Assembly: GCA_947503335.1 (NCBI GenBank)
Contig: CANNCY010000004.1
Coordinates: 258,305-322,304, forward strand
DNA from: an uncultured Pseudomonadales bacterium
Lineage (GTDB): Bacteria; Pseudomonadota; Gammaproteobacteria; Pseudomonadales; CANNCY01
Reading direction: 5' to 3'
DNA length: 64,000 bases
In this document: positions 24,985 to 52,300 of the stretch, piece by piece
Layout of the letters: each line of letters starts with the position of its first letter
Position numbering within the stretch: position 1 is the first letter of the stretch
Notes under the pieces: model-generated
What the model saw: the letters and a program-made list of their open reading frames with translations, nothing else
Database searches by the model: none
Told to the model about the DNA's origin: nothing
Translations under genes and position numbers: made by a program

Positions 24985-25017
24985 AAGGGCTAACTTAACC
25001 GTTAGCCCTTTTTTATT
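24985..25017 (+). terminator. Rho-independent terminator (between convergent genes)
   Basis: AAGGGCTAAC-TTAACC-GTTAGCCCTT followed by TTTTTATTT. Confidence 0.8.
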
Positions 25018-25026
25018 TGGTGTTTT

Positions 25027-28363: not shown

Positions 28364-29601
28364 AGAATACTCTCTGTAAACTGGCGCAAAAATAGATCAG
28401 CATTATTTTGATTGACCCCAGAAAGGGTGTAGTGGCTTATTAGGGCGCGGTCGTTGTGACCAATGTGTGCCGCATTGTAGATCACATCATATAGACCCTT
28501 AAATTTCTTGTACGACCTAACGCAATAAACAGTTTCTATATTTTTATCTTGTGCGCCTTCTACGCGCGCTTGCTCGCATTTGAAGTTGTTAACTTGATTA
28601 GCGTTTGCGCGATTACCTGGGCGCGCATTCTGAAAGTTTCTGCGCACTTGATTATAAAAATGTCTAGGCGATAACGTATCGGTCTGCATCCAATGAAATT
28701 GAATTTCGATAGAGCCAGTCTGAAATTTATTCTCAATATAGATGTTATCGTTGAGATAACAGTTAAACTTCGTCGATAGATAAATAGTGTCTTTCGTGCT
28801 CTTGTTAGATTTGCCCCAGCACGACAAAAAGTCGGCAAATTTTGATGGAACCTGAGCGTCACCTAGCGAAAGAGAAGGCCAGTCTTCATTTAAAATTAGA
28901 TTGTAGAGGCGCGATTGATTATCTGTTAGTTGCGCAGTGATCATTTCATTGATCGGCGAGTGATCGTTAGTCGCAGAATCTACTAAATGACTCAGCGGTT
29001 TTAGTGGCACTAAAAAGCCTAAAGCATTACCGCCTGTAGCAACATTGACGCCAACGACCTTGCCTGACTCATTTAATACTGGGCCGCCGCTCATTCCGGG
29101 GTTAACAGAACCTGTAAAATGAATACGTGGGTAGAAGCTGTGCTCTTTTAAGCCGTTGTATGTTCCTGGGCTCACGATCATACCTAGGTCGCGCGGATTA
29201 CCCAGTGAGTAAATAGTGTCACCCTGATTTGGATTGTTATCACTTAGTTCAATAAAGTGTTCTAACTCGCCTTCTAGTTTAACGATGGCTAAATCGTTGA
29301 CGACATCGACAGAGATAATCGATAACGAGCCAACATCACCCATATTATTGACGTACTGTAATTTGTAATCGTCAGGCGACAGTGCTTTTTGGCTGATGAC
29401 ATGATAGTTAGTGGCGATGAGACCGTCGGCACTAATCGCGAATCCAGTACCGTAACTTGATTTGGTGTCTGACGATATGTCTAGTACTTTAATTTGATAT
29501 AGCGATTGTTTGTGGGTTTTAAACAGCTCGCTAGCATCTTCGTCACCGACAGCGATAACCGTGGTGAACGACAATAAGATGCCCAATATTAGGCGTCGCA
29601 T
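28354..29601 (-). CDS. Secreted trypsin-like (S1, DegP/Trypsin_2-type) serine protease with unknown C-terminal domain of about 200 aa, no PDZ
   Basis: Signal peptide MRRLILGILLSFTTVIAVG. Catalytic triad contexts ATNYHVI (His), NDLAIVK (Asp) and NPGMSGGPV (Ser). Confidence 0.8.
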   Translation of the reverse strand: MRRLILGILLSFTTVIAVGDEDASELFKTHKQSLYQIKVLDISSDTKSSYGTGFAISADGLIATNYHVISQKALSPDDYKLQYVNNMGDVGSLSIISVDVVNDLAIVKLEGELEHFIELSDNNPNQGDTIYSLGNPRDLGMIVSPGTYNGLKEHSFYPRIHFTGSVNPGMSGGPVLNESGKVVGVNVATGGNALGFLVPLKPLSHLVDSATNDHSPINEMITAQLTDNQSRLYNLILNEDWPSLSLGDAQVPSKFADFLSCWGKSNKSTKDTIYLSTKFNCYLNDNIYIENKFQTGSIEIQFHWMQTDTLSPRHFYNQVRRNFQNARPGNRANANQVNNFKCEQARVEGAQDKNIETVYCVRSYKKFKGLYDVIYNAAHIGHNDRALISHYTLSGVNQNNADLFLRQFTESILWP

Positions 29602-29664: not shown

Positions 29665-30132
29665 CTACCAATGAGCCTGTTCAAACAGCTGCATAAACAT
29701 TTGTTTAATTCGAATTACTCCTGCTTGGGGTAGATCCATAGCAATACCAGTGCCGTTTTCTTGAATCAGCGATAGACGAGTCATCTCTGAGGACTGCACT
29801 TCTAACACGTGCTTGATTGCTAGAGGATAGGTGTCGACTTGCGAGATGCATTCGTTATTGCGACTTAATCTTGTCTGAGAGTTCTCTACCGCTCTCTTTT
29901 CAGCATCGTTAACGGCTTCGCTGACACCCACATCTTGACTGTCGTCTGCATGAGTGAGTCGCTCAATGAGTTGCTGTGTCTCAATTTGTGCCTGCACCGA
30001 TGCACCTAATTGAACTAGTATCGACTTTGCAATGCGCCGCGTAATCCACCAGTCAGGTTGCGTTACATCAAGCCCAGTCTTAAGCAATACACGATCTTGT
30101 CTAGAGTCGTAGGTAATTTCTAGTGCACTCAT
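29665..30132 (-). CDS. Hypothetical cytoplasmic protein (155 aa), no recognised domain
   Basis: The ORF starts 1 nt after the stop of the 389-aa gene. No signal peptide or TM. Confidence 0.4.
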   Translation of the reverse strand: MSALEITYDSRQDRVLLKTGLDVTQPDWWITRRIAKSILVQLGASVQAQIETQQLIERLTHADDSQDVGVSEAVNDAEKRAVENSQTRLSRNNECISQVDTYPLAIKHVLEVQSSEMTRLSLIQENGTGIAMDLPQAGVIRIKQMFMQLFEQAHW

Positions 30133-30133: not shown

Positions 30134-31303
30134 TTAAATCAAGTCGTCAAGACCACCTTGTTGGGGATCAGGGCGATCAAGGTTGGTATGCTCATGATCA
30201 GGCGTGTCGGCGAATACATCGGGTTCAGCTGAAATAGCAGCTTCTGCACTCGTCCAGTCGCTAATAGCTGCGTCGTCTTCAATCGCTTGTGTCGATATGG
30301 ATGCTTGAGGCGCTGAGTATTCAGACGAGATATCTAGCGTCAGCTCTGCTTTGGCACCTTCGACCGGTTGTCCTAACGCCGATAAACCTTCAAATTTGAT
30401 CGATTGAGGCCCCGATGCATCAGGGCCTAGCGACAAGTTAATGCTTGCGTCTAAATTGCCAGACACATGAAACTCGCCAGGATTTACTTCAATGCCTGCG
30501 CTTACTTTGGCGCCAACAGGTAGATCGTAAATAGAGACCTGATCTACTTGTTCAAGTGACGTAATGTCAGAAGGTATAGAAATAGCGAATTCTGAGTCGG
30601 GCGGCGCGGTAAGATCAAATGACGATTCTGGTTCAGCAGTGTTCACAATAGCTGGTTCGTTAACATCGATACTATCGCTCGGTTCTTTAGCCTCTGTATA
30701 GCGTGGCGACACCATAAAGCGCTCGGCAAAGCCAATGGGTTCACCGCTATTTTCTTCAGCTCTGGCAAGCGAGAATTGATGGTTAAAAACAGATCCTTGG
30801 TCAACGATTTCGATGTCTACAATAGGCTTGTCAGGCGCGTCATCGCCTTGTTCTGATAGCTCAAACTGAAACACATCATCGTCTATTCGATTGATCGTTG
30901 CAGCATCACTGTGAACATTGTGAATCTCGGCCACGCTCGATAGTTCGTCAGCTACTGTGCTAAGAATATCCGCAGTTGATAGCGTAAGTGGTGCATCGAA
31001 CGGCATGGTTGCGATGGGCAGGTCGAGTAATTCAACGACCGGGGCAACGTCAAAATCCAGACGAGCGGTGATCACCGACGAGTCTTGTTCTGCCTCGATC
31101 GATAAACCCACCTCACCGCCAAAATCAGGGTCAGAGAAGTAAACCCAACTATCAGGCCCTTCACTGATCAACGTGCCCGACTCGCCAATCTGTTCAATAT
31201 TGCGAATCTGAGCATGTAACTCTAGCTGTGCAATCGACGCGATAATGTCTTTACTTGTAAAAGCCAACTCGCCTGATTCATCAACTCGCCATCTAGCCAT
31301 CAT
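30134..31303 (-). CDS. Acidic 389-aa protein sharing the C-terminal domain of the giant adhesin (candidate second T1SS substrate)
   Basis: Good SD (AGGTGA) upstream of ATGATG. No signal peptide. Its last 151 aa or so align without gaps to the last 151 aa of the 6,990-aa protein (see findings). Confidence 0.6.
   Translation of the reverse strand: MMARWRVDESGELAFTSKDIIASIAQLELHAQIRNIEQIGESGTLISEGPDSWVYFSDPDFGGEVGLSIEAEQDSSVITARLDFDVAPVVELLDLPIATMPFDAPLTLSTADILSTVADELSSVAEIHNVHSDAATINRIDDDVFQFELSEQGDDAPDKPIVDIEIVDQGSVFNHQFSLARAEENSGEPIGFAERFMVSPRYTEAKEPSDSIDVNEPAIVNTAEPESSFDLTAPPDSEFAISIPSDITSLEQVDQVSIYDLPVGAKVSAGIEVNPGEFHVSGNLDASINLSLGPDASGPQSIKFEGLSALGQPVEGAKAELTLDISSEYSAPQASISTQAIEDDAAISDWTSAEAAISAEPDVFADTPDHEHTNLDRPDPQQGGLDDLI
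30137..30589 (-). other. Homologous C-terminal domain in the 389-aa protein
   Basis: ...ISIPSDITSLEQVDQVSIYDLPVGAKVSAGI...ISSEYSAPQ...AIEDDAAISDWTSAEAAISA...QQGGLDDLI. Positional matches to the giant protein tail over the full length. Confidence 0.55.
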
Positions 31304-31347
31304 CTATCACCTATGCAAGCGCAGCGCAAAACGTGCCGTACTGATCT

Positions 31348-34300
31348 TTAAATGTAGTCGTTCGGATCGTTATCGCCTCCATTGTTTTGATCAGGGGTAT
31401 TGTCTTCTGCACCACCGGTATCAGCGAGTGGGTCAACACCGCCTGCGTCAGCAGCGGCAGTAGTCCAGTCGTCTGCAGCAACGGTATCGTCAATCGCCTC
31501 TGCGTTGTCTGCGCTGCTACCATCAAGCGCGTAGTCGCTGCTTACTTCAACACTGGTCGTTGCCTCTGCGCCATCAACAGGGTTGTTTAACTGATCCATG
31601 CCCTGAATATCTAGAACCGCAGTACCTTCAAAGTTGTCTCCAAGGGTCATCGAAACCGGCTGGCTTAGATCGCCACTTAACGTGTAGCTACCATCGCCGT
31701 TGTCTATGCCGCTTGATAGAGTGGCTCCCTCTGGTAGACCTCCAATTACAACCGAATCAACAGAAGCATCACCCGAGATATCGGTCGGAATCGATACAGA
31801 CACCGAGCCGCCAGGAGCTGCTTGGGCGTCAATGCCATCGGCAACGGCATCAGGGCGAGTATCCCCTGATAGTGATGCCTGAACCGTCTCGGTGCCGTCA
31901 CTAACATCAAAGGTCATATCCACTTCGCCCTCATGGTTTTCATCAGCGACTAACGTATAGGTGCCGTCGCCATTGTCGGTCATGGTGGCGTGATCAGACT
32001 GGAAGTTACTAACGGTGAGGTTATCGCCATCAACATCGCTAACATTCGCTAATAGCTCTTCTAGCGTGAATGTTTGCGTGCCCGTTTCGACGAGATCAGC
32101 CTCTACAGCACCACTTACCTCAGGTGCATCGTTCTCTGCTGTGATCGTGAGATTGATGTTACCCGTGCCACTGTTATTGGCGTCACTAGCGCTTACTTGA
32201 AGCTGTACCGTGCCGTTATAGTCAGGGTCACTCCAGAAGGTGTAGGTGCCGTCGCCATTATCGATGACCGTACCGGCATCAGGGTCAACGGTTACATCGT
32301 CGATGCTGCCGGTACTATCTACTGCACCCACTTGATCAAGTAGTTCGGCGGTGGTCAACGTAAGCGAGCCGTCTTCTGCCATGGTGTATTCGGCTGGGTC
32401 AGGGTCGGCGATCGCTACATTCAATTGGCTTTGTATCGTGCTGGTACCATCGGTTGCACTAAAGCCAATGGCCACGTCACCGGTAACCCCTTCATCTGGG
32501 GTAAAGGTATAGGTACCGTCGCCATGATCAAGAACAACGCCTTCGCCGCCAATTACTTCGACGCCGCTAATACTGAGGTCATCACCATCGGCATCGTTAA
32601 CCGTGCTCAATAGGTCTGCATCAGTAAAGTTGAGGCTGTTACCAGCATCAATGTTTGTTGTGATTTCGGTGTCGGCGGTAGGTGCACTGTTGCCGCCACC
32701 GGCATTATCAAACACTGCAATCGAGCTTTGCGCATCTGTGCTGTTGCCGTTTTCGTCGACCACTAAGAACGCCATACCCACTTCGCCCGAGAATCCATCA
32801 GCCGGAGTAAAGGTGTAGGTGCCGTCGCCGTTATCAACCAAGTCACCCTGCGAACGATCTGCAAGATGGGCGAGTTGAACACTATCGGTTTCGCTGGTCT
32901 CAAGGCCTGACATTTCGAGTAGATCGGCCTCGGTAAAGGTAACCGGCTCGCCTGCATTGGTCTCAAAGTCACCGACAGGAACAGTACTACCATCGAGATC
33001 GGTTACTTGTTCGTCACCGTAGTCAATGGTGGTTGCACTTACCGTTACCTCAAAGGTGCCTGCCCAGTTTTCGGGTGGCGTCATCGCAATGTTTTCGGTA
33101 TCCCAACCGGTCACGTCGACATACTGATTCTCTTCAGTAATAGTAATCGTGTTGGTGCCATCGCTTAGTACGAAACCAACAGGGAAGCCGGTAATTGCTA
33201 CGTTACTAATTGATTCACTGTCATCAATTAAGCCGACACTGAAGCTAAAGATGCCGGTTTCATCTTCGGTCATCACAATCGGCCCATCTTGGGTGCGAGT
33301 AATTACCGCGCCATCGGCTACTGGGCGAATATAAACCGGTAGGTCTAGCGTGGTCTCTTCAGTACCATCGGTGACCACAAGCTCTAACTGAGGAATACCG
33401 GCAAAGTCTTCAGCACCCACGTAGGTGTATGTGCCGTCGCCGTTATCGGTAAGTGAACCCTCTTCATCGTCGGGTAAGATCACCCGCGAAATAGCAACCG
33501 TGTCACCATCGACATCGCTAAATAGATCAAGCATGTCATCGGCGTTGAAGGTGATCGCGCCGTCTTCTTCAATCGCTAGATGAGCATTACCCGACGCAAA
33601 GGCAGCATCGTTGACCGGCTGAAAGTCAGTATTTAAAGTACCATCGGTCGTGGTGGTGCCATCACTGATTTGGTAATCGAGTTCGATTACCCCGTTAAAG
33701 TCTTGTGATGCCACTAGTTGATAGGTGCCATCCTGCTGTTGGTTTAACTGCGCGTTTTGGGGCTGACGTACACTCAGATTAGTAAGTGTTAGATCATCGC
33801 CATCAAGATCAGTCGCCTGAGCTAGAATAAACGCAGGGTCGATGGTGAGTACCTGATCTTCGGTGCCGACCAGTTCTACGGTAGGCGCGTCAGGGGCATC
33901 GTTAACACCTTCGACGTTTACGTTATAGGTTGCACTGGTGGTAGCTTCGCCATCGGTCACGTCATAGCTAATTGCGATCTCACCGTTAAAGTTTTCGGTG
34001 GGCGTAAAGCTAAAGGTACCGTCGCCGTTATCAACCAACGTTCCTTGCGAGTCATCCTCCATGGCAAGATTTAGAGCTGTTAGCGCATCGCCATCGATAT
34101 CACTCGCATTCTCCAACAAATCTTCTTGAGTGATCGTGATAGTGCCGTCTTCTTGCATGCTAGTAGACGAGCCAGCGCCACCGGCTGCAAAGATAGAAAT
34201 ATCATCAACAAAGTGTTCTGCAGTTGAGCCACCTGTACCGCCGGCGAAGGCGGCTTTTACAGAGTCGGGTAGGTTAATACCGTTGTCTGGCAGAGAATAG

Positions 34301-37300
34301 TTTTCGATCTCGGTAACAAAGGTTGTGCCGCCATCGTAACTTAGCTGAACATTAAGCACACCTTCGGGTGAGATATCGATGTTAACCGGAATAGTCTGGT
34401 TATCGATAACGTCGTTACCTAAGTCGAACGTTTCAACTACACCGTTTGGCCCAATCAGCTGTATCGAATCGCCCCACCATTCTTCAAAGGCAATACCGAA
34501 TTCCATGCCGTCCATGCCCTGAATACCCATGCTGCCGCCAGGGTTGCCAGCTTCAAAGTTATTGCCATCAATTTGATCGCCGTTAACTAACACAAAGCCC
34601 ATGCCGTCGCCGTTATCGGTGGCCGACTGGTTACCCATGGTAAAGCTAACCTGAATACCCTGGTCAGAGGGCATCTCTTCATCATAAAGAATCGCGCCAG
34701 CCTGCTGACTTGTATCTTCAGTTAGCGTTACTTCGCCGTCAGCGATAGTTGCGTCGCCCGCTGCAACCCATCCTTCAGCGTTGCCGCTAAAGTCTTCGCT
34801 CATGTCGATGCCACCAGCGACAACTGGGCCATCGTTCACCGCATTGACGGTGATATCGACGCCGCTTTGTACCGTAGAGCCATTACCGTCAGAAATGTCG
34901 TAGGTAACATCAAGCGCACCATTAAAGTTGGCATCGGGCGCGATCGTAAAGCTGCCGTTGCCATTGTCGGTTACTGTCGCATTAGCAACCTGCAAATTAC
35001 TTGCGGTTAGATCGTCACCATCAGCATCGGTCGCGTTGGCGAGTAGTTGCTCTTGGGTAAGGGTTAGCGAACCATCTTCGTCGATCGTGGCGGTGACATT
35101 ATCGCCTACCACAACAGCATCGTTTACTGACTCAACTGTGGTTACATGCATTGCTTGCACTGTTTCAGTGCCGTCAGTTGCATCAAAGGTGAATGCAAGG
35201 CTGCCATTAAAGTCGGCATCGGGGGCAACAGTAAAGGTACCATCGCCGTTATCTTGAATTGTTGCTTCGGTTGACCCCGGTGCTAGCTGCAAGTTACTCG
35301 CCGTAATGTCATCACCGTCGATGTCGGTAGCGTTGGCTAACAGATCATCTTGGGTGATGATTAGAGTACCATCTTCGTTAACGGTGCTACTTGATACGTC
35401 GACACTTGGACCATCGTTGACCGCTTCAACAGTAACATCCAAAGTATTACTAACAGGGTCGCCGTTTCCATCACTAATGGTGTAGTCGATCTGTATGTCG
35501 CCATTGAAGTTAGCACTAGGTTCATAGGTAAAGCTGCCGTCGCCGTTATCGGTTAGGGTACCGTCGGCACCATCTGCCAACGATACCGATGAAACGCTGA
35601 TAACATCACCATCAACATCGTTTGCGTTGACCAATAGATCAGCGTTGGTGAATGTATAGCTGCCGTCTTCTTGCATGGTAGCCGACAGTGGGTCACCAGC
35701 TGTTGGCAGGTCGTTGACATTGGTTACTTCAACATTGATTGTGCCCTGAGCTTGACCACCGTTACCATCATCAATGGTATAGGTCACTGGCATCGTGCCA
35801 ACAAAATCATCATTACCTGTGATCGTGTAGGTGCCATCGCCATTATCCACGAAGGTACCGTCATCGCCATCGTAGCTCATATTGGTAATGGTTAGGGTGT
35901 CACCATCAACGTCAGATACGGGTAAGATGTTAATAAGTTGCGCAGGGTCAACCACAACAGACGCTTCTTCGGCTTGGCTAACTGCAACGGCGTTGGCGAC
36001 TTCAGGTATATCATTTACAGGGTTAACGGTGACATCAATACCTGATTGCACGGTTGAGCCATTACCATCACTAACATCAAAACTAACGTTAAGTGAGCCG
36101 TTGTAATCGGCATCAGGTGCAACCGTGAATGAGCCGTCACCATTATCAGTAACGGTTGCATTTTGTACCTGCAAGTTACCGGCAGCAAGATCATCGCCAT
36201 CAACATCAGTTGCATTAGCGAGTAGATCATCTTGAGTCATGGTGAACGAGCCGTCTTCGTCAATCACCATGGTGAGCTCGGCGCCAACTTCTACAGCGTC
36301 GTTTACTGCAACGATATCCACACTGATGGTCTCAGAATTAGTTGCTGTACTGTCACCGTCGGTTGTAGCTGCAGTCGCAGTGATAGAGATTTCACCGCTA
36401 AAGTTTTCGGGTGGCATCAAGGTAAGATCTGCAAGATTCCAACCGTCGACATTAATCGAGCCACCATCGCTTTCTGGCGTATAGCTATTAGTGCCATCAG
36501 ATAGCGTTACACCAGCTGGGATATCACTTAATTCTAAACTTAAGGTTTCAGATCCGTCGGTATCAACAAGAGTTGCCGATAGATCAACGTTGACCGCAGT
36601 GTCTTCGTAATGGGTGTCATCAGTTTTCTGGGCGACAACACGAATGTTGTCCATGATGCCACCGGCACCATCATCGCTGTGTGAATTAAAGATGATGGTT
36701 GGATTGTCGACCGTAGCAGTGAAGGTAAATTCATACGAACCCCAACCCGCGCCATCAACTGGCTCAACATCAAAGGCTTCGAAACCGTTCTCAGTTTGAA
36801 CGCGAATATGGATGCCATCATCGCCCGTTGCGCCAGCACGTGCGGCTGCATCAAAGCTAAGGGTGAAGGTGTCACCTACCTCAACACCATCAGCATCTCT
36901 CATGATGCCTGCCCAACTTGAATTGCCGTACGTCTCTAGCTCAACTACCTGACCGTGATCACCGGTAGCAAATGCGCCTAAGTATGCAGACTCATCATTT
37001 ACTTCAATGTGATTTGATGGGGTAGCAGTTGCCCATCCCCATTGATCAATGTCGGTTAAGCCAGCGGTGATGTCTTCAAAATCTTCATTAAATATTTCAG
37101 TCTCAATAATATTCGCAGCAGGTTCTATGGCAAATGCCAACTGTGCAGCATCTGCAACTTCAACCACATTTAATGTGGATGCAAATTCTGCAGTAGTCGT
37201 GCCATCAGATAGTGTGATGGTTAGATCAGCAGCACCTGCGAAATGTTCATCGGGTGTGATAGTAAAGGTACCGTCGCCGTTATCGACAACCGAGCTATTT

Positions 37301-40300
37301 CCATCAGAAGAGCTGATTGATGCCACTGACAAAACATCTCCGTCGACATCAGAGGCGTTAGCTAAAATATCAGCAGCGTTAACGGTAATCGCGCCATCTT
37401 CTGATGTATTAAAGTCAACACGTGTCATTACAGGCGCATCGTTAACTGGGTTAACTTCTAAGAATGCATTGCCGGCTGTTGCGTCGGTGCCGTTACTTAC
37501 ATCGTAATCAAACTGCACCTGTCCATTGAAATCAGCATCAGGTATAAATGCATAGGTGCCGTCACCGTTATCCACAAGGGTACCGGCGTCTTCACTGGTG
37601 AGTGTGAAGTTTTCAATCGATAGCGAGTGGTCAGCATCACTCGCGTTCGCAAGTAGCTGCTCGTCAGTAATGGTAATTGAATTGTCTTCATCAACACTTA
37701 GGTTTGTATCGTTGACGATTGTTTCATCATCAACTGACGTAACGTTAAAGCTTAGAGTGGCCGACTCGCCCGCTAAACCATTTTCGTCAACTGCATGGAA
37801 CCCAATGTCTACTAAACCATCTCCATGGGCGTTTTCGTCTGGTACGAAGGTAAGTTGGTCAAGTTGTGATTGGGTAAGATTGTCGCCAGGCTGCACTTCT
37901 TGATTGCCATTTACTAATCCGTCGATTTGTTCGGCTGTAAGAGCATCGTCAAAGACTTCAAAGTTTGCCAACGAACCAGCGAACGGTTGATGGTTACCGA
38001 GGCCATCATCGTCATGATCAAAGTTGCCCACTTCACTGATAGAATTCGTTACTTGGTGTGCCGATGAACCAACGAACTCGCCATCAATATAGAAGTGCGT
38101 CTCGCCACCTTCACCCACGGCGGTCAGATTGTGGAATTGACCGTCGTTGTGATCTGAATTCAGAAAGAAACCAGAACCAAAAAACTGTGAATGATCATTG
38201 CTGTAAACACCAATTTCATTCGTGGTGCCGTGTAGTAAGATATGATGATTACCGCCGTCAGAGACGTCGCCGCGTGTCAACGTACTCCATTGACCATCAT
38301 TAAGTTTGGGGTTTTGGAAGTCAACCGAGACAGTCCATGACTCGCCCATCTCTACGTTGGTGTCTAGATCGATAACGTCTGTATCAGGAGAGTCGAAGGT
38401 ATAAACCTGACCTAGCTCAGCATCATTTGTAACTACTACTCCATCTGCGCTGCTGTTTGTCGTAGTATCAAGAGTAAAGTTTGCTTCGGGTAGACTAGTG
38501 TCATAACCCAAGATCAGGCTACCCTCACCATCAATACTGTCAATGGTTACGGTGTAATCATCGCCATCAGCATCGGTTACTGGGAAGTCAGCAGAACTTA
38601 GTTGATAAGCGGTGTCTTCTGTGGCGGTGATCGTGTTATCACTCGCCTGAGCGGCATCGTTGACGGCGGTAACTTGAGTCACATGCATTGCTTGCACGGT
38701 CTCGGTGCCATCCGTTGCATCAAAGGTAAAGGCTAGTTCGCCATTAAAGTCAGCTTCGGGAGTGACGGTAAAGGAGCCATCGCCGTTATCCTGAATCGTT
38801 GCCTCAGTTGACCCTGGAGCAAGTTGCAGATTGCTCGCGGTAATATCATCGCCATCGATATCAACGGCATTCGCAAGTAGGTCATCTTGAGTGATAGTTA
38901 TGATGCCATCTTCGGCAACATTACTAAGCGACGTGTCAACAGTAGGGCCGTCATTTACTGCCGTTACGGTGACATCGATATTACTTTGAATTGTAGAGCC
39001 GTTGTTGTCGGTTACATCAAAGGTTACATCTAAATCACCATTAAAGTTCGCATCTGGTGACACAGTGAATGTGCCATCACCGTTATCGGTGATAGACGCG
39101 TTGCTCGACTGCAAGTTCTGAGCGGTTAAGTCATCACCATCAAGATCACTCGCGTTGGCCAGCAGTTGTTCCTGCGTCATAGTGAACGAGCCGTCTTCAT
39201 CAATGGTTACGGCAAGGTTGTCACCGACCTGAACAGCATCGTTCACTGCATTGATAGTAATTGGAATATCCATGGTGCTAGTAGCTGTGTCACCACCGGC
39301 ATCGGTTGCGGTCGCAGTTGCTGTTAAGCTTGCATCGCCATTAAAGTTTTCAGGCGGTGTCATGCTTAGATTCGACAGATCCCAGCCTGACACATCGACG
39401 CTATCTTCATCAGCCGTTGCCGTGAAGCTATTAACACCATCAGTTAGCACCGCGTTTTCAAGAAGGCCGCTGATTTCTACTTCGAGTGATTCTGAACCAT
39501 CGTTATCGGCAAGGGCTGCCGAAATATCAATCGCTACCGCGTTGTCTTCGTCAGCAGACAGATCGGCTTTAGTTACTGTAACGCGATCGAGTAGGGCGCC
39601 TGCGCCATCATTGAATGCCGCTTGAAACTCGAAGCGAGGATTATCTTCGGTAGCGGTGAGCGTGTAACTAAAGGTTTCAAAACCGATCTCAGGAATCATC
39701 TGATCGATCTCTTCGCCTTCGAAGAAAAGCTTCACATGGTTTGACTGCGGGTCAAGATTATTACGACCCGACATATCAAACTCGATGGTAAAGGTTTCAC
39801 CGGCTTGTATGTCTAGATCCTTCCATAGGTTACCTGCGTCGTTACCATAGCCTTCTAGTTCAAGAACGGTACCTTCGGTTGAACCGGTGACTCCATAGGT
39901 TCCCGAGGCCTGGTTTACTTCAACGAGGTTATTAAAGCCAGCTCCACCGTCGCCACCCGTATTATCAGTAGACCACCCCCAAACAGCAGGGTTCTGCCAT
40001 CCAGATTCAGTAACGGTAAACGAGTGCAATGGTGTTGTATCTAAGTTCAGCGCCAAGAACGGCTCATCAGCAGTTCCTGCCACCTCGACACTTGAGCTAA
40101 AGGTAGCGGTGTCGGTGCCATCTGAAATAGTAATTTCTAAGTTATCGGTACCGGCAAAGTTATCATCGCCATACAGCGTGAAGGTGCCGTCACCGTTATT
40201 CAAAATAGTGGTGTTACCATCGGTTGAGCTGATGTCAGTAACTGACAACGCATCGCCGTCTACGTCTGATGCATTCGCCAAAATGTCGGCCGCGTTGATG

Positions 40301-43300
40301 ACTAAGCCTTCATCTTCTGTCGCGCTAAAGGTGACTGCCGAATCAAGCGTAGGTAAGTCGTTAACAGCACCTACATTGACGTTACCGTTGGCAGCCGTAA
40401 GTTCGGTGCCGTCATCAATTTGGAACGTAAACGGTACTTGGCCATTAAAGTCGTCGGCTGGCTCAAAGTTCCAAGAGCCATCACCATTGTCGGTTAACGA
40501 ACCAAAGCTTTCGTCAATTGAAAGGTTAACTGCAGTTAGTGCATCGCCATCAATATCAGACGCATTTGTTAGTAGATCAGCTTGAGTAATAGTGAGGCTA
40601 GTATCTTCGGTACCATTTAAACCAACAGCAGTGCTGGTAGCCGCATCGTTAACCGCAGTTACATTAATGTTTAGCGAGCCGTCGACTGTACCTGTGCCAT
40701 CATTGATGTCGTAGCTAAGGTTTAACTCGCCATTAAAGTTTGGATCAGGATTAATAGTAAATGAACCATCACCATTGTCTGTGACCATGGCTGGCCCATC
40801 GATCGTCAGGTTCTCTGCCGTTAGGGGGCCGCCATCAATGTCTGCGGCGTTAGCTAATAGGTCATCTTGTGTAACTGTAATACTGTTATCTTCTAATGTG
40901 TTGGCAGTAACCGGTGTTGTGGTCGGTAGGTCATTAACTGCATTTACAGTGAGATCTAAACCAGCCGATACCGTTTCAGTACCATCGGTTACATCAAAGC
41001 TAACATCGATCTGGCCGTTCCAATCGGTATCGGGTGTGATTGTAAAGGTGCCGTCGCCGTTGTTGACAACTGATGCGTTGCCATCGATTGAGAGATTCTC
41101 AGCAACCAAAGTATCGCCATCAACATCTGATGCATTAACCAGCAAGTCAGCTTGAGTAAGAGTAATAGATCCATCTTCATCGACAGAAGCAGCCGCATTT
41201 TGGCTAACCACTGGCGTATCATTGGTACCCTCAAAGTTAAAGCTAACATTAGCGGTAGCTTTCGCACCCTCGTTATCAATGATTTCATAGGTAAACTGCC
41301 CAAGTACTTGCTCACCTTCAGCCAATTGAAGAACCGTAGCGTTAGGGCTAAATTGAACCTGTTCTTGGCCGTCTATTTCAACAACCGAGACTGCGCCAAT
41401 AACATTGCCATCAGCGTCTACTACGTCAGATAGTGTGATAATCGAAACATCACCTTCGACGTCTGAATCGTTTGCCAGCACATCAAAGTTAGTGATCACA
41501 TCATCAGCAGCGATAACTCCATCGATTAAATATTCTGCTTCGACGGTAGGGGATCCCCAAACAGTAGACGTAATTTCGCCATCGGGGCCCTCGGCATTAA
41601 ATGGATTGTCTCCATTAAACTGGTGATGGAATAAAGCATCTTGACCATCAATCGTATCACCACCCATCATTTGCTGAGCATCGTCAGCTGATGCGCCGTA
41701 CCCATCATAAACCTGAACGTCTTTGATTTCGCCAACCATTGGGTTGTGCGTCCAATCATCACCTATTACAACAACATCGCTCCAGTCAAATCCTGAAGTA
41801 CCCATGCTGCCCTGTGCAGCAAGTTCACCATCGATAAATAGGTTTTGATTATCGCCATCAAGCGAATAGGTAATGTGGTGCCACTCGCCATCAGCGAGGC
41901 TGCCAACATTTGACTCTATATGTTGCGCTCCTACACCTGATTGCCATGCATAGGCTTCAATGTTGCCATCAGCATCCATAGAGATCTGTCGATCAGCACC
42001 ACTTGAATTATAAGTACCTACCGAGAATAGGCCCTGTTCGCCTTGGTTTTCAGGGTCGACCTTGACCCACATAGAAACCGTAAACTCGCCATTGTCGGCG
42101 TTAGCGCCACCAGGAACGCCAATTGAGCCGCCGCCAGGTAGTTGCAGTGCTCCGCCTGCTTCACCATCGTCGACTGCAACCGGCCCATCGTTTACAGCAT
42201 TAACCGTGATATCTACACCAGATTGCACCACCTCGGTGCCATCTGAGATATCCATGCTGAAGTTAAGCTCGCCATTGAAATTCTCATCTGGCGTAATGGT
42301 GTACGAACCGTCACCATTGTCTGCAAGCGTAGCGTTCGCAACACTGGTTAAAGTAGCAGTAAGATTATCGCCATCGACATCTGATGCATTGGCGAGTAGG
42401 TCGTCTTGAGTTAATGTAATCGAACCATCTTCATCGATGGTGTAACCGACATTACCACTGACATCAGCTGCATCATTTACTGCAGCTACTGTTAGGCTAG
42501 CGCCTGATTCAACCACACTGCCTTCTTGGTCAGAAACACTGAAGCTTATGTCTACATCGCCATTGAAGTTAGCGTCTGGCGTAACAGCAAATGATTTATC
42601 ACCGGTATCAGGATCGATTACGGTGTTAAAGGTAGCGTTAGGAATCTGTAAGTTAGTAACGATTAGATCTTCAGAATCAAGGTCACTTGCGTTGCTAAGC
42701 AGGGCAGCTTCAGTAATTGTAAACTGAGTATCTTCAGTTGCGTTAAAGCTAGGTTCGTTGCCCGCATCAATCACTACCGCATCATTCACTTCTTCTACCG
42801 TGAAATTAAGTTGTGCAGTTGATGTTTCGGTATCACCGTTTTCGTTTTCAATTGATGTCGCGCTGATATCTAAGGTGACATCGCCACTAAAGTTTTCAGC
42901 GGTGGTAATGGTCAGTGATGATAAATCCCAATCACCAACTTCAACACTGTCGGCCTCAGCGGTTGCTGTAAATGTGTTGCTGCCATCGGTTAGCACCGCG
43001 CCTTCAGGAATAGCCGCAACCTCAATTGACTGCATCGACTCTGAACCATCGGTATCCACAAGGGCGGCATCAATATCCAAAGTAATCGCAGTATCTTCAT
43101 CGGTCGAAGAAGGTTCAGATATACGAATAACATCAAGTACTGCACCGCCGCCGTTGTGTGAAGGCGAATCTAGTTCAAGCCGCGGATTGTCGGTTGTTGC
43201 GGTTAAGGTATAGGTGTGTGACTCCCAACCTACTTCTGGCAAGATTGAATCGATCAGTTGTCCTTCAAAATAGACATCGACCTGAGAATCTGCGCCGGCA

Positions 43301-46300
43301 GAGCCAACGCGCGCAGAGATGTCAAAGCTAAGCTCAATCGTATCACCGGCTTCAATATCAAGATTTTGATAAACGTTAGCTTCATCACCAACAGCCGCTT
43401 CAAGCTCCATTACCAAGCCACGATCGTCACCAACACCATAGACCCAGTCTTGGTTAACTTCGATACCACCGCTTTGGTTATCGGTTTGCCAGCCTTGCAG
43501 TACACCACCTTGAATATTGGCATCACCAAATTCGGCAACTGACATTTCGCCCAGCGCAACGGTTAACGAAGGCGCATCTGCGTCTGGTGTAATGGTGACG
43601 GCCGAATCGAAATCAGCAGTTACCGTGCCATCGTTGAGGCTAATCGTTAGATTTGCATCGCCACTGTAGTTTTCGGCAGGGGTGTATACCCAATCGCCGT
43701 CTTCATTTTGAGTAACAGAGCCATTGCCATCGGTTGCGGTGATATTGGTAACACTCAGTGCATCACCGTCAATATCAGAAGCATTAGCTAAAAGCTCGGC
43801 TTCAGTAATGACAATACTGTTGTCTTCAGTCAGTGCGAAGCTAGTTTCTGCAAGCACTGGTGTGTCATTTGCAGCAGCGACATCGATGTTGCCATGAACA
43901 TTGGTGGTAGCTGTGCCATCAGATAACGTAAAGCTGAATGGAACATCACCGTTGTAATCGCCTGTAGGGGCAAAATCAAAAGTACCATCGCCATTATCGG
44001 TAACCGCACCAAAGCTCGGGTCAATCGTTAGATTAGATGCGGTTAACTCATCGCCATCAATATCAGACGCATTTGCTAACAGATCGGCCTGGGTGATAGT
44101 GATCGTTGTGTCTTCAGTACCAACTAGATCAACGTCATCGCTAGTGGCCGCATCGTTCACTGCTTCGACGGTTGTAACATGCATCGCTTGCACTGTTTCA
44201 GTGCCGTCGGTTGCATCAAAGGTAAAGGCGAGGCTGCCATTAAAGTCGGCATCGGGGGTAACAGTAAAGGTACCATCGCCGTTATCTTGAATCGTTGCTT
44301 CGGTTGACCCCGGTGCTAGCTGCAAGTTACTCGCCGTAATGTCATCACCGTCGATGTCAGTAGCGTTGGCTAACAGATCATCTTGGGTGATGATTAGAGT
44401 GCCATCTTCGTTAACGGTGCTACCTGACACATCAACACTTGGGCCATCGTTAACTGCTTCAACGGTAACATCTAAAGTGTTGCTAACAGGGTCGCCGTTA
44501 CCATCACTAATGGTGTAGTCGATTTGAATATCGCCATTAAAGTTAGTACTAGGTTGATAGGTAAAGCTGCCGTCGCCGTTATCGATTAGGGTACCGTCGG
44601 CGCCATCTGCCAACGCTACAGATGAAACGCTGATAACATCGCCATCAATATCGTTTGCGTTGACCAACAGGTCGGTATTGGTGAATGTATAGCTGCCGTC
44701 TTCTTGCATGGTAGCTGACAATGGGTCGCCAGCTGTCGGCAAGTCATTGACGTTGGTTACTTCAACATTGATCGTGCCTTGCGCTGTGCCGCCATTACCG
44801 TCGTCAATGGTATAGGTCACAGGCATCGTGCCAACAAAGTCGTCGTTACCTGTAATCGTATAGGTGCCGTCGCCATTGTCGACGAAGGTACCATCGTCAC
44901 CCTCGTAGGTCATGTTGGTAATGGTTAGGGTGTCGCCATCAATGTCGGATACAGGCAAAATATTAATAAGCTGTGCAGGGTCTACCACAACCGATGCTTC
45001 TTCGGCTTGACTAACGGCAACCACGTTAGCGATTTCAGGAATGTCATTGACGGGCGTTACCGAAATATCGACAGCGCTTTCAACGACCGAACCATTGCCA
45101 TCGCTAATATCGAATGTTAGATCAAGATCGCCATTAAAGTTGGCGTCAGGTGTAACAGTAAAGGTACCATCTCCATTATCGGTAACCGTAGCATTATCCC
45201 CTGCATTTAGGTTCGATGCAGTAAGATCATCGCCGTCAACATCACTCGCATTAGCCAATAGGTCTTCTTGAGAGAGTGTGATCGAACCGTCTTCATCGAT
45301 GCTGGCGGTAACTGGTGCGCCAGCATCAACTTCAGAGTTTACGCCGCTAACAGTGATAGTTGCAGTCGCTGAATCAGTAGCTCCATCTTCATCCACGATC
45401 ACGTAATCAATAGTGACATCGGCCTGTTCATCGACCGATAGCATGGTGAAGTTTTCGTTTGGCGTGAATTGAATTTGTTGATCGGTTTCGCCAGTAGGGG
45501 CAGTGAATTCAGGATTTGCCCAAACTAAATGATCGTTATCTTTAGTGCCATTTGAGTGCACTAGCAACGTAAGCGTAGAGCCTCCTGTAACATCAATATC
45601 GACAATACCTCCATCACTATTAGCCGTTACATTGGCCTGATCGAATACGCCGACTCCATCAACACGCACTGAAACATTCACCAACCCAGAGCTAGTCATT
45701 CCAAGAATGGAGCTAAAGTTTGTAGCACCCTCAGGGATTTCAAAGGTAGCTGTTGATAGCCCATCGCCAGGATGCATACCTATGCCACTATCATAGTTTT
45801 CACCATTGATAATGATGTTGTGGCCTGCCGACCAGCTATCGTCTTCAAGCAGCGTGCCGCCATATAGATTGCTGGTTGAGGTTGCATCAGAAGCGTTCAG
45901 CTCAACCTGACCCATCACCGGAATGTCAACGATTTCTGCGGTACCGACTTCAACACCATTGAGCATTACCGTCTCATCGACCGATTGTATCGATACATCA
46001 GACTCAATATCTGAATCATTGGCGAGTACATCGATTAAGATCGTTTCGCCTTCATTAGCTGTAGCAGAATCATCAACCGCTACAGGGCCATCATTTACCG
46101 CGGCAACCGTTAAGCTCGCCCCAGATTCAACCACGCTGCCTTCTTGGTCAGACACACTGAAGCTAATGTCTACGTCGCCATTGAAGTTTTCATCGGGTGT
46201 AACAACAAATGATTTATCACCAGTGTCAGGATCAATCACTGTATTGAAGCTAGCGTTAGGAATTTGTAGGTTAGTAACGATCAAATCGTCTGAATCGATG

Positions 46301-49300
46301 TCGCTCGCATTACTAAGTAACGCCGCCTCAGTAATGGTAAATTGGGTGTCTTCGGTTGCGTTAAACGTTGGTTCATTGTCTACATCAATCACAACTGCAT
46401 CGTTAACATCTTCAACCGTAAAGGTAAGATCTGAGGAAGCTGATGCGGTATCACCATTCGCCCCTTCTTCTGAAGTGGCGGTAACTTGCAGCGTAACATC
46501 TCCTGCAAAGTTTTCAGGTGTAGTGATAGTAATTGACGACATGTTCCAATCAATCACGTCGACACTGTCACTATCAGCAGTTGCGGTAAAGGTGTTGGTA
46601 CCATCAGTAAGAACTGCACCTTCAGGAATCGATTCTACTTCAATTGATTGCATCGATTCTGAGCCATCGGTATCGACCAGTGCGGCATCAATGTCCAAGC
46701 CAATTGCCGTTTCTTCTTGCGTAGCTGTCGGCGCAGAGATACGAATAACATCAAGTACTGCACCGCCGCCGTTGTGTGATGGCGAGTCTAGCTCAAGTCG
46801 CGGATTGTCAGTGGTCGCTGTCAGTGTGTAGGTGTGGGATTCCCAACCGACTTCTGGCAAGATTGAATCGATCAGTTGCCCTTCAAAATAGACATCGACC
46901 TGAGAATCTGCGCCGGCAGAGCCAACGCGCGCAGAGATGTCAAAGCTAAGCTCAATCGTATCACCGGCTTCAATATCAAGATTTTGATAAACGTTAGCTT
47001 CATCACCAACAGCCGCTTCAAGCTCCATTACCAAGCCACGATCATCACCGACACCATAGACCCAGTCTTGGTTAACTTCGATACCACCGCTTTGGTTATC
47101 GGTTTGCCAGCCTTGCAGTACACCACCTTGAATATTGGCGTCGCCAAACTCTGCTACTGACATCTGTTGTAACGATACAGTTAACGACGGAGCGTCGGCG
47201 TCAGCATCGATTGTCACTGGCGAATTAAAATCGGCTGTGGTGGTGCCGTCACTCAGAGTGATAGTTAAGCTGGCATCGCCGCTGTAGTTTTCAGTAGGGG
47301 TGTAGACCCAGTCCCCATCACCGTTTTGCGTAACACTGCCATCTTGGGTTGAGATATTGGTAACGCTAAGCGCGTCACCGTCAATATCAGAAGCATTAGC
47401 TAAAAGCTCGGCTTCAGTAATGACAATACTGTTGTCTTCAGTCAGTGCGAAGCTAGTTTCTGCAAGCACTGGAGTGTCATTAGCAGCCGCGACATCAATG
47501 TTGCCATGAACATTGGTGGTAGCTGTGCCATCAGATAACGTAAAGCTGAATGGAACATCACCGTTGTAATCGCCTGTAGGGGAAAAATCAAAAGTACCAT
47601 CGCCATTATCGGTAACCGCACCAAAGCTCGGGTCAATCGTTAGATTAGATGCGGTTAACTCATCGCCATCAATATCAGACGCATTTGCTAACAGATCGGC
47701 CTGGGTGATAGTGATCGTTGTGTCTTCAGTACCAACTAGATCAACGTCATCGCTAGTGGCCGCATCGTTCACCGCGTCTACCTGCAGATGAACTGTCGCA
47801 TCTACCGAAGCAGAACCATCATTGACAGTTGCGGTTAAATCAATATCACCGTTAAAATTTTCACTAGGCGTAAAGCTATAGGTACCATCACCGTTATCAA
47901 CAAGGGTACCGTCGTCACCTACGTACGAAACCGCTTCAAGGGTTAAGTCATCGCCATCAATATCGGTAGCTTGAGAGATGATATCGTCAGCGGTTAATAC
48001 GATAGTGGTATCTTCATCCATCGTATAGGTTGGGTCAGGAAACGAAGGTAAATCATTTACAGCAGCAACATCAATCGCAGCCGTCGTAGTTGAAATATCT
48101 ATACCATCACTAACAGAAACATTGAGGGAAATTTCACCGTTAAAGTTAGCGTTTGGTGTGAAGGTAAAGGTGCCGTCATCATTATCTACTAATGTGCCAT
48201 CGTCACCCGTATATTCAACATTATCGATAGATAAATCATCACCATCGATGTCAGAACTGTTGGCAAGAAGTTGCGCATCACTGAGCGTAATGACACCGTC
48301 TTCATTCATGCTAAACGATGTCGATCCAGCAATCGGTGCATCATTAACTGCAGTAACATCTACGTTGATTGTCGATGCTGTAGTCTCGGTACCATCGTCT
48401 ACAACAAAATCGAGAACGACGTCGCCATTAAAATGTTCGTTCGGCGCAAAACTGTAGGTGCCATCGCCATTGTCTGCAAATACACCGTCTTCACCTGAGT
48501 AACTTACCGAGTCGATACTGTGCGTATCTTCATCATCAAAGTCTTCAACATTGGCAAGTAGGTGTTCATCGGTAAAGGTAAGTGTGCCATCTTCGTTGAC
48601 AACTACATCATGGGTGTCAACAATCGCCGCATCGTTTACTGCCGTAACGCTTAGGTTTAATGTGCCAGCGATTGTTCCAGTGCCGTCATTAATGTCATAG
48701 CTAACCGTTAGCTCGCCGTTAAAATGCGGATCAGGTAAAATACTAAAGCTGCCATCACCGTTGTCAGTGACCATCGCATTGGCCACAACTAAGTTGTCAG
48801 CCGTTAGGTTGTCACCGTCTATATCAGATGCATTGGCGAGTAGGTCGTCTTGGCTAAGGGTAATGCTAGTATCTTCTGCAGTGGTCGCGCTTACATCATT
48901 AGTGACAGGTAAGTCATTTACTGCATTAACTGTAAGATCTGCATTACCTTCAATAACACGATCACCATCAGTAATATCAAAGGTAATACCGATTTCGCCA
49001 TTGAAGTCAGCATCTGGAGTGATCGTAAAGGTGCCATCGCCATTGTTGGTTAGCGTAGCGTCACCTGTAATGGCAAGATTACTCGCCGCTAAACTGTCGC
49101 CATCGGCATCGGTAGCGTGGGTTAATAGGTCAGCTTGAGTTAGTGTTATTGCGCTGTCTTCGTCTACAGACACAGCCAAGTTTTGATTAACTTCTGGCGT
49201 CGAGTTTGTGCCTTGCATCTTAAATACAACATTGGCTGTATCGGTAGCGCCATGTTCATCGGTGATCGTGTAGGTAAACTGTGCGGTTTCAAACTCGCCA

Positions 49301-52300
49301 AATTCCAATGCGGCGGCATCAGAGTCAGGCATAAATTGAACCTGTTCAACACCGTCGATTTCAACAACGTTTAACGTACCCAGAACGGTTCCGTCAGCAT
49401 TCACCACATCAGACAGGCCGGTAATGCTGAAACTGTCACCGTCGATATCAAAATCGTTAGACAATACATCAAAATTGGTAATCACATCATCGGCAGCAAT
49501 AGTACTGCCTTCTAATGATTGGCTAACTTCAGGGTTGCCAGTGATTACTGGCGACTCGCCAATAATATGCGCGTTGCTGCCCTCGACAACAAACTCTGAA
49601 CCCTCTTCAAACTGCATTCTAAACTGCGGCTCAACGCCTTGGGTTGTCTCTAAGGTATCGCCCCGCATTAGTGCATCAACATCATCTTGGGTTGCGCTGA
49701 TGTTGGTGTAGGTTTGAAAGTCGCGAATTTCACCGGTCATGTCGCCGGCCATGTGAGAGGTACCTAGGGTCATCGCTGAAGACCAGTCAAAGTCTGATTG
49801 CGATAGATCGCCTGACGCAGCGAGCTCGCCGTCGATATAAATCTGGTTGCCACCATCGCCTAAGCTATAAACGACATGGTGCCACTCGCCATCGGCAAGA
49901 TCGCCAACGTTGGTAGTGGTGTAATCGTTCTGGCCAGATGAGTCCCACGTGTAAGCAACCATATCGCCGTCTTCATTTAAATAAAGATCGCGGTCGTTAC
50001 CGTTGCCTGGGTCAATGATACCGAACAAACCTTGCGGGCCCTCAGCGTCTGGCTCAATTTTGAACCACATTGAGGTGACCTGACCATGAATGTCATTGTT
50101 GCCAACATTCAACTGCAGCGAGTCATCACCATCAAGCACCAAGCTGCCGACGTTGCCATCGTTAGAGGCAACAGGATTATCGTTTACAGCATTAACAGTT
50201 ACGTCTAGGCCTGATTGAACTAAGTCTGTACCATCAGAAACGTTCATGGTGAAGTTCAGTTCACCATTAAAGTTTTCATCTGGAGTAATCGTATAGCTAC
50301 CATCACCATTGTCAGTTAGGGTAGCGTTCTCTACACCGGTTAGTGACGCGGTTAAACTATCACCTTCTATATCACTCGCGTTCGCTAGTAGATCAGCCTG
50401 AGTAAGCGTGATGGAGCCGTCTTCATCAAGCGTTACGGTGACGTTACCAGAAACATCGGCAGCGTCGTTGGTTGCTGCTATATCGAGGGTCGCACTTGTG
50501 CTAGTAACATCAGTACCATCGTTTATTTCATAATCTAACGTAACTTCACCGTTGAAGTTTTCATTAGGGTCAAAACGATAGGCGAGTGTTGTATCGACGT
50601 CACCGTTGGTAGTAACACCTGATTGGCCAGTTGCATCGATGATCTCGCCGTTTTCAACGCGCAGGTCAAAGGCCATGTTCGCTGCCACTGTTGATAGGTC
50701 GGCTTCTGCTTCAAGCGATGCATCATCGACCCTTTCATAGGCCATTGAAAAGTTTAAAAGCTCGGCGTTCGATGTAGCCTGTGTTGAATCAAAGCCACCA
50801 CCATAGGTGTCTTGCTCTTGACCAAGAATAACTAAGCCATTCGCAGGTATGGTAATGCCTTGTTGCAGTGTGTCGGTGCCTACAAGCTCGCCATTATCGA
50901 AGACTTTCATAACGCCATCTTCGGCTGACCAGCTAATTGAAATATGGTGGGGCTGGCCGTCGTTAAGATCGAGTGATCCAAACATCGCCGAATCAGTGTT
51001 GCCTACATCTAACCCTAAGCCACCATCAGAATTGCGAACGTATACATTGAGCATATTATTGCCCGCATCTGAGGTCGCTGCACCAAACAGGTTTTCAATA
51101 CCACCGCTATGAGCACCGGTCGAGGTATAGGTGAAATCAAGCGTGAACTCATCATAGCTCTCTAAGGTTTCATCAAGACGAACCTGGCCATCGGTACCAC
51201 CGCCAAAGGCAATGCTACCTGATTCGGTAAGGGTGCCGTCGTCGCCGGCATAGCTGACATTTTGTACGCTGAGATCATCACCCTCAACATCGGTAGCGTT
51301 CGCCAAAAGGTCGGAGTCGGTGAAATATACAGCGCTATCTTCGCTACCAGCGATAGTTGGCTCGCCGCCAACGGCTGCGTCATTGACTGCTGCTACATCA
51401 ATAGTTAGGTTGGTACTAGTAGAATCAATGCCATCAGACACATCGTAGCTAAAGCTAACCTCTCCATTAAAGTCTTGTGCGGGAGTAAAACTGAAGGTGC
51501 CATCGCCATTATCAACGATCGTGCCCATATCAGGATCATCGAGTGTTAAGTTCTCGGCGACAAGATCATCAGGATTATCTACATCAGATGCATAGGCAAG
51601 TAATTCATCTTGAGTAATGATGCGTGTTGAATCTTCGGTGCCTGTTAGTGACTGATCTTGAGATACTTCAGGCCCGTCGTTCACCGCCTGTACGCCAAAG
51701 GTGTAGGTTTCCTCTACGGTAGTGGTATCAAAGTCCTCTACAGGTGCTGCGTCTTCTACAACATCGACAGAGAATGTTTCCTCAGTTGTTTCAGAATCGA
51801 AGCTCTCTTTGGCGTCACTTAATGATTCCTCTGCCCCCTGTGCAACCCCGCTATCTGCGGCTTTTGGGTCAACTACGTCGGTGCCTGACTTGCTACTGGT
51901 TTCGCCTGATTCTGCATCACCACCAACGGCCTGAGCGCCTACATCGTCGCCACCGCCGTCTTCAGCACTAGCCTGGTCGCCCGCGTCAGAAACGCCGCCC
52001 TCTACAACACCAGATTGAGATTCTGACGATCCGCTAGAGTCACCGCCACTAGACCCACCGCTCGATCCCTCAGAGGAGTCACCCTCACCAGACTCATCTC
52101 CAGCAGATCCAGACTCTCCGTCATCTGATGATGCTTGAACAGAATCATCCATTCCTACATCGCCCGAAGCAGCGGTATTGGCAACAGTGCTCGTCGTATT
52201 CTTATTCTGCTCTTCCGCTTCAGAGCTCGATTCGGCACTACCGTCGTTTACTGATTGCTCTACCGCGTCGTTGAGAGGGTTTTCATTGTTTGGATCTTGC

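Follow-up and report, generated by a model that had tools for sequence, protein, structure and literature searches.

A giant cadherin-like adhesin and its small downstream paralogue share a C-terminal cassette that may serve type I secretion without RTX repeats

SiiE, a giant adhesin built from immunoglobulin (Ig)-like repeats, is exported by a type I secretion system, SiiCDF, whose genes are located nearby (PMC5466336, PMC8277102). The abstract of PMC5466336 calls SiiE 'the only known substrate', and a small paralogous co-substrate is not described for it. Here we analyze a locus of similar design in a DNA stretch of 64,000 nucleotides from an uncultured Pseudomonadales bacterium (contig CANNCY010000004.1, positions 258,305 to 322,304), referred to as the window. 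It encodes a giant adhesin of 6,990 aa (31348..52320, minus strand) and downstream of it a small protein of 389 aa (30134..31303, minus strand). An original prediction, made from the sequence alone, held that both proteins end in the same domain of about 150 aa, and suggested pairwise alignment and a profile search as checks; its open reading frame (ORF) calls for both genes were confirmed. In common with SiiE/SiiCDF of the Salmonella pathogenicity island SPI-4, the locus has a giant adhesin with tens of Ig-like repeats and no Sec signal, and probably a dedicated set of ATP-binding cassette (ABC) exporter, adaptor and channel nearby. The repeats are BIg domains in SiiE and tandem-95 / Cadherin_5 domains here, and the tail of the window proteins is without detectable similarity to any solved chain. 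SiiE is not known to contain a classical run of RTX (repeats in toxin) nonapeptides. SiiCDF has one ABC protein, and the accessory SiiAB proteins are MotAB-like.

LapA-type adhesins carry blocks of RTX nonapeptides ahead of the secretion signal and an N-terminal retention module that is cut by LapG. With LapA and the RTX adhesins (LapBCE, MpIBP, FrhA) the window protein shares giant size, repetitiveness, extender beta-sandwiches, a putative uncleaved C-terminal signal and a possible link between export and signalling. Unlike these it has no RTX repeats, its N-terminus is an acidic low-complexity segment of about 200 aa, and no LapG- or LapD-like gene was found among the window ORFs scanned. 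Boardman and Satchell reportedly described in 2004 that the Vibrio MARTX type I system, RtxB/RtxD/RtxE, contains two different ABC proteins instead of a homodimer. The window likewise encodes two different ABC proteins. MARTX toxins have RTX-type repeats, and the two ABC proteins of their exporter are canonical and of full length, whereas one of the window proteins is without N-terminal extension and catalytic glutamate and both are without LSGGQ.

Several paralogous substrates of one exporter have a precedent in Rhizobium leguminosarum: according to the abstract of PMC9298526, PrsDE exports several Rap proteins that share cadherin-like (Ra/CHDL) domains. The Rap proteins differ from the proteins studied here in that all are small, belong to a domain family that is apparently unrelated in sequence and are not encoded beside a giant parent gene. 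In protease and lipase substrates such as AprA, PrtG and TliA the extreme C-terminus consists of an acidic residue and hydrophobic residues after it (PMC2642768), which resembles the endings NDYI of the giant and DDLI of the small protein and those of about half of the family described below. Unlike the window proteins these substrates have GGxGxD repeats upstream. The system is a variation on a known theme and not a new kind of system.

The similarity between the two tails is real. Aligned without gaps, the last 151 aa of giant and small protein share 47 identities (31%) with a BLOSUM62 score of 203, compared to -107 ± 26 for 5,000 shuffles (z = 12), and the first 95 positions alone are 35% identical (z = 11.4). 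BLASTP with compositional adjustment aligned the whole small protein to the last ~345 aa of the giant (E = 7e-26). The similarity is therefore not purely compositional, and an explanation by acidic low complexity was rejected on account of the adjusted E value, the z score and the conservation of the tail in a family. The alignment check thus came out in favor of the prediction. Its claim of a gap-free alignment was right for the first ~100 aa of the tail; over the final 60 aa, one-residue indels are required to bring the AIxD and DWT motifs into register. The supposed restriction of homology to a tail of ~150 aa did not hold, because the whole-length match extends over all 389 aa of the small protein.

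The tail is also not a single domain. AlphaFold2 (AF2) was run on an alignment of 17 tails and returned predicted local distance difference test (pLDDT) values of 92–97 for residues 1–100 and of about 50 for residues 101–160. In both proteins the first part is modelled as a confident beta-sandwich and the second as disordered. The terminal beta-sandwich comprises aa 6831–6930 of the giant (31531..31830, minus strand, pLDDT 92–97) and aa 230–329 of the small protein (30317..30616, minus strand, pLDDT 90–96). It is followed by a disordered acidic stretch, aa 6931–6990 of the giant (31351..31530, minus strand, pLDDT about 50) and aa 330–389 of the small protein (30137..30316, minus strand), which is supported by AF2, composition and motifs. 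Of the 150 aa that had been taken for one secretion domain only these last ~60 residues resemble a type I signal.

The disordered stretch of the giant has a net charge of -16, contains no K or R, shows the motifs DWT and VDPLADTG and ends with NDYI. In the small protein the net charge is -13, the motifs are DWT and PDVFADTP and the terminal residues are DDLI; both stretches contain 0–1 basic residues. Among the elements conserved across 18 tails, an almost invariant D-W-T is followed by [GV]-D-x-[MLF]-x-D-[ST] and then by an acidic run, often with one or two hydrophobic residues at its end. About half of these tails end with an acidic and then a hydrophobic residue (NDYI, DDLI, DHLF, DDNL, DDDF, DENI, DNLV). 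This ending is not universal, as other members of the family terminate with GGIG, SGLG or MTP. Disorder, acidity and C-terminal placement of the last ~60 aa are consistent with a type I signal, and we consider the stretch in the giant a candidate for such a signal.

The beta-sandwich of the giant appears to be a sixth, divergent copy of a module with the pattern 'DTDGSE..IPEGAxLxDG' that occurs five times inside the protein. An hhalign comparison with the five internal modules gave a probability of 93.9% (E 1.5e-7), and in a hidden Markov model comparison the score was 12 bits with a shuffle maximum of 9.4. Similarity to the ordinary tandem-95 repeats was weak (46% probability, hhalign). Searches for known domains with the tail yielded zero matches in Pfam at E ≤ 1 and in NCBIfam at E ≤ 0.01, sequence relatives were not found in the PDB (best E 0.15), and the folds that Foldseek returned for the beta-sandwich were all of a generic Ig, cadherin or PKD type (E ≥ 0.007).

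To follow the tail beyond the window, 1.84 billion representatives were searched exhaustively by HMMER with a profile of the two tails. The 502 matches fell into two sharply separated classes, one with a single strong C-terminal match per protein and one with many weak internal matches. The strong class consists of 16 library representatives and the small protein of the window, each with one match to the full profile at ~95–115 bits. All 17 of these full-length high-scoring matches and the giant itself have the tail at most 17 residues from the C-terminus. Among the matches listed for the weak class we found giants with 4–45 internal matches of 12–30 bits each, which are ordinary Big_9 or Cadherin-type repeats in unrelated giants. 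The profile search accordingly identified a conserved and strictly C-terminal module. Of the 16 library representatives in the strong class, P0108 is orthologous to the small protein; the others are giants or fragments of giants, including a short full-length family member of 1,181 aa, P0154. P0096 was considered as another small protein with the tail and rejected, as it turned out to be a fragment located where its contig begins; P0116, P0122, P0127 and P0148 were set aside because their sequences look fragmentary.

The giant contains ~45 tandem-95 / Cadherin_5 repeats together with LamG, pentaxin, NPCBM and DUF642-like domains, and passes the cut-off of NF012211 / PF17892 with 45 stretches (1,536 + 1,474 bits). 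In the translated sequence DUF642-like 'EVNQDWVYG...' regions precede the 'DTDGSE..IPEGA' module. The acidic low-complexity N-terminus of ~200 aa gave zero family matches and is 40% identical to that of P0154. Judged by eye, the N-termini MLAMSDAQDPNNENPLND... and MMARWRVDESGELAF... do not contain the hydrophobic core of a signal peptide, in agreement with the earlier claim that both proteins are without one. RTX models had zero matches in giant or small protein in the Pfam and NCBIfam scans, and the GGxGxD motif was found once in isolation at giant residue 433 and not at all in the small protein, so that the reported absence of a GGxGxD run stands. TIGR03661, the curated model of a type I secretion C-terminal target domain (VC_A0849 subclass), was not matched at E ≤ 0.01 by the last 599 aa of the giant, by either of its halves or by the small protein. 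A signal peptide is not visible, and no other route suits a protein of 6,990 aa. The giant is very probably a type I substrate that uses its C-terminal region.

Genes for a putative type I exporter are located upstream of the giant in divergent orientation. Two ABC exporter halves, a short one of 537 aa (ABC537; 52487..54100, plus strand) and a long LssB/PrtD/HlyB-like one of 708 aa (ABC708; 54097..56223, plus strand), are followed by a hybrid histidine kinase. Beyond these genes the minus strand encodes another hybrid kinase, an H-NOX protein, a TolC-family outer-membrane channel of 444 aa (60651..61985, minus strand; PF02321 157 bits) and a membrane protein with a C-terminal receiver domain, whose frame leaves the window (61985..64000, minus strand). 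The channel scored 156 bits with TIGR01844, below the cut-off of 225 bits. ABC537 has a Walker A motif, a Walker B motif that reads LFDD, no N-terminal extension and no catalytic glutamate. As neither ABC protein carries the LSGGQ signature and ABC537 has LFDD, the two proteins probably form a heterodimer with degenerate ATP sites. HlyB and the PrtD-like exporter of Aquifex (5l22) are among their closest bacterial relatives of solved structure. A published generalisation states that exporters with a C39-like domain pair with RTX substrates (PMC8277102). In the N-terminal extension of ABC708 (~165 aa) residues 45–120 match the C39 family PF03412 at 13.5 bits (E 0.064), below its cut-off of 22, and the orthologues of ABC708 in the loci L006 and L008 gave no match to PF03412.

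The link between tail and exporter is based on synteny in three independent loci with enough flanking sequence, L006, L007 and L008. On the complete chromosome of L006 (CP136522.1) the giant is followed in order by a 124-aa ORF, an adaptor, a ~740-aa receiver protein, a TolC-like channel and the ABC proteins ABC526 and ABC717. In L008 the order of the five secretion genes is unchanged and they diverge from the giant, and in L007 the same set is found beside a tail-bearing giant, disrupted by insertion sequences. The window encodes orthologues of all members of the L006/L008 set except the adaptor, at 27–47% identity: ABC537 is 38% identical to ABC526 of L006 and 41% to ABC547 of L008, ABC708 is 45% identical to ABC717 and 47% to ABC712, the channel is 27–28% identical to its counterparts, and the receiver-domain protein corresponds to the ~740-aa protein. 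The adaptor of L006 scored 276 bits with TIGR01843 (cut-off 209). Because adaptor, receiver protein and channel follow each other in L006 and L008, the adaptor gene of the window is probably located just past base 64000, upstream of the receiver-domain gene. A 572-aa receiver protein was considered as a disguised adaptor and rejected, since it proved to be a membrane protein that combines a degenerate kinase-like part with a receiver domain.

From these observations we derive the following model. The giant would be a non-RTX cadherin-like adhesin that leaves the cell C-terminus first through a dedicated type I system, consisting of the ABC537/ABC708 pair, an HlyD-type adaptor encoded outside the window and the TolC-like channel. 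The disordered acidic stretch of ~60 aa with its DWT and D-x-[LFM]-x-D-[ST] motifs would be read by the complex of ABC proteins and adaptor. The beta-sandwich of ~100 aa would emerge ahead of the remaining protein, fold outside the cell and block back-sliding as a folding ratchet, a role that RTX blocks have in other systems. As it retains the complete cassette and lacks a signal peptide, the small protein would most likely be exported by the same system as an additional, small substrate; such export is plausible. For the combination, a giant exported by means of its C-terminal cassette and a small protein exported as well, we lean slightly towards acceptance.

Several findings weigh against this combined reading. 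The last 56 tail positions, which hold the putative signal, share 14 identities between giant and small protein, and with z = 4.1 their similarity is weak. The ABC proteins stay far under the curated type I cut-offs (304 vs 693 bits for LssB), and the LSGGQ signature is missing in both. The original prediction regarded the tail as the recognition module for the adjacent ABC system: synteny and C-terminal placement favor this, whereas an HlyD-type adaptor (membrane fusion protein) gene was not found within the 64-kb window. The small protein and a 155-aa protein encoded next to it were not found in the loci L004–L009, therefore a second substrate is not general to the system. Between the window and the syntenic contig L002 the tails of the small proteins are 39% identical, those of the giants 70%.

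Alternatively, the cassette could be mainly an extracellular functional domain at the distal end of the adhesin, for example for binding of a ligand or the matrix or for homophilic interaction, so that both proteins share a partner, with the secretion signal confined to the last few dozen residues or located elsewhere. The distribution of conservation speaks for such a role, as the beta-sandwich is the best-conserved part (35% identity and z = 11.4, compared to z = 4.1 for the disordered end). Homology of the beta-sandwich to internal modules of the giant means that the fold itself is not a terminal signal, and ligand-binding domains are common near the C-terminus of RTX adhesins (PMC12153261). 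However, every high-scoring copy occupies the extreme C-terminus and is accompanied by the DWT/acidic stretch, which ligand binding alone explains poorly. A binding role is moreover compatible with type I export through the cassette; as a replacement for it we consider it unlikely.

Whether the small protein is a functional product depends on its architecture and history. Its AF2 model contains three beta-sandwiches (aa 1–88, 95–195 and ~230–329), a disordered linker at 196–226 and the disordered tail. The first two, the cadherin-like D1 (aa 1–88) and D2 (aa 95–195), are encoded at 30719..31303 on the minus strand and were modelled with pLDDT of about 85–94. Matches of the small protein to Cadherin_5 / tandem-95 models remained below threshold (24 vs 90 bits and 20.5 vs 26.5 bits). 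Read from the sequence, the motif 'SWVYFSDPDF' in D1 is the counterpart of a family-specific 'WTFWxDPDF' repeat that precedes the terminal beta-sandwich of the giants by one or two domains. Since this motif and the three beta-sandwich domains correspond to the end of the giant, the small protein is a mini-copy, i.e. a paralogue, of the conserved ~350-aa C-terminal cassette and not an unrelated protein that borrowed a tail.

An orthologue of the small protein, P0108 (393 aa, 40% identity), is encoded on the syntenic metagenome contigs L002 and L003. The giant tail is followed in L002 by the small protein, a 161-aa protein and the protease; L003 is a near-identical contig. Word-index homology searches with the small protein and with alignment A4 returned essentially the queries or cadherin-repeat noise, and small and 155-aa proteins were seen only in the window and in L002/L003. 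Comparison of window and L002 gave a nonsynonymous divergence (dN) of 0.60 for the small gene and of 0.24 for the giant tail, about a 2.5x nonsynonymous rate. The synonymous divergence (dS) is saturated, which makes dN/dS uninformative for the small gene; within this limit the gene still appears to be under purifying selection. In a tree the small tails form a clade of their own that is not joined to the giant tails of their own lineage (13% bootstrap), and a recent lineage-specific duplication of the tail is thus unsupported. The small protein is a lineage-restricted and fast-evolving mini-paralogue.

The same data could indicate that the 389-aa gene arose when the 3' end of the giant gene was partially duplicated and has drifted since then as a leftover, maybe expressed but without a dedicated role and not a meaningful second substrate. 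It is restricted to the lineage of the window and to L002/L003, its dN exceeds that of the giant tail between the same two genomes, and the small tail does not group with the giant tail of its own lineage. With super-repeats of ~3.6 kb and 82–94% nucleotide identity, the giant gene is highly recombinogenic. On the other hand the frame is intact, the lengths of 389 and 393 aa were kept at 40% identity with saturated dS, and AF2 predicts three confident folded domains. LPxGA, DWT and the acid-then-hydrophobic terminal motif were retained as well, and a Shine-Dalgarno sequence and a one-nucleotide junction to the next gene form an arrangement that is kept in L002. Intact frame, conserved length, folded domains and kept motifs argue against a dead fragment, and a leftover is quite improbable in our view. 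If the small protein were not exported, the finding would amount to an ordinary partial gene duplication.

The gene arrangement suggests expression of the small protein together with its neighbors. A gap of 44 nt separates the giant gene from the downstream 389-aa gene, a terminator was not predicted between the two, and a Shine-Dalgarno sequence, AGGTGA, precedes the 389-aa ORF at 31307–31312. The small gene therefore appears to be transcribed together with the giant. Because of a 1-nt junction, the next ORF starting 1 nt past the stop codon of the 389-aa gene, the two downstream genes are probably translationally coupled. This ORF encodes the 155-aa protein (29665..30132, minus strand), an orphan without family match; its only detectable relative is the 161-aa ORF of L002 (43% identity), and a word-index homology search with the 155-aa protein yielded essentially the query only or cadherin-repeat noise. 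An intracellular small protein, maybe acting with the 155-aa protein, whose tail occupies or primes the exporter as a competitor, gatekeeper or assembly factor, would fit the coupling to this cytoplasmic-looking orphan and the conservation of the pair, the surrounding signalling genes (receiver-domain protein, hybrid kinases, H-NOX) and the divergence of the small tail from that of the giant mainly in the disordered stretch, but a precedent was not retrieved in the literature searched, the sequence has no cytoplasmic-retention feature and other loci of the family do without the small protein, which makes this very unlikely.

Returning to export of both proteins through the cassette, a bolder version would see in the locus an undescribed class of type I systems. 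In this class a cassette of beta-sandwich and DWT/acidic stretch would replace RTX block and signal, the exporter would be an atypical heterodimeric ABC pair, without LSGGQ and with one dead Walker B motif, always accompanied by a receiver-domain membrane protein, export would be gated by a phosphorelay (NIT/HAMP kinase; here also H-NOX), and in this lineage the cassette would have been copied onto a mini-adhesin that is co-exported as a dedicated partner of the giant. We put this forward as speculative and rather doubtful. Irrespective of it, type I signals are poorly defined outside the RTX family, and the tail family offers an alignable C-terminal cassette for which Pfam and NCBIfam have no model. 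It belongs to giant marine adhesins, and synteny ties it to one particular, atypical exporter; candidate signal and exporter form a pair that is tractable for defining a non-RTX type I signal and the part of the transporter that reads it. The small paralogue would provide a natural test substrate of 389 aa in place of one of 6,990 aa.

The secretion genes are embedded in signalling genes. TolC-like channel and receiver protein share their gene run with a haem-NO-binding (H-NOX) protein and a hybrid histidine kinase (58785–60654, minus strand), suggesting that nitric-oxide sensing is wired beside adhesin export. The membrane protein of ~740 aa with a degenerate kinase-like middle part and a C-terminal receiver domain is located between adaptor and channel in L006 (21156–23381) and L008 (5948–8158). 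With a receiver-domain protein among the secretion genes, export of the adhesin may be under the direct control of a signal. L008 additionally encodes an Hpt protein, and a NIT/HAMP hybrid kinase is a conserved neighbor, with 37% identity between HK849 of the window and HK933 of L008.

Two other loci of the family contain recombinase or transposase genes: P0154 (L004 479–1756) adjoins a serine recombinase, and the adhesin and secretion locus L007 is full of transposases (4991–9843, 20964–25537). This hints at loci that are mobile or prone to recombination.

Farther downstream of the giant run the window encodes a trypsin-like protease with signal peptide and an FHA/transmembrane protein (27422–29601, minus strand). 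A LapG-like role of this pair was rejected as unsupported, since the pair also adjoins hemCDXY, without any giant, in a metagenome-assembled genome of the Alteromonadaceae (L001 9959–12228). Protease and FHA/transmembrane protein are probably an independent module. In the window a periplasmic-looking protein of 147 aa and a porin-like protein of 391 aa (11586–13204, minus strand) resemble by eye a pair of 162 aa and 353 aa in L008 (19770–21321), which is located downstream of the L008 hybrid kinase.

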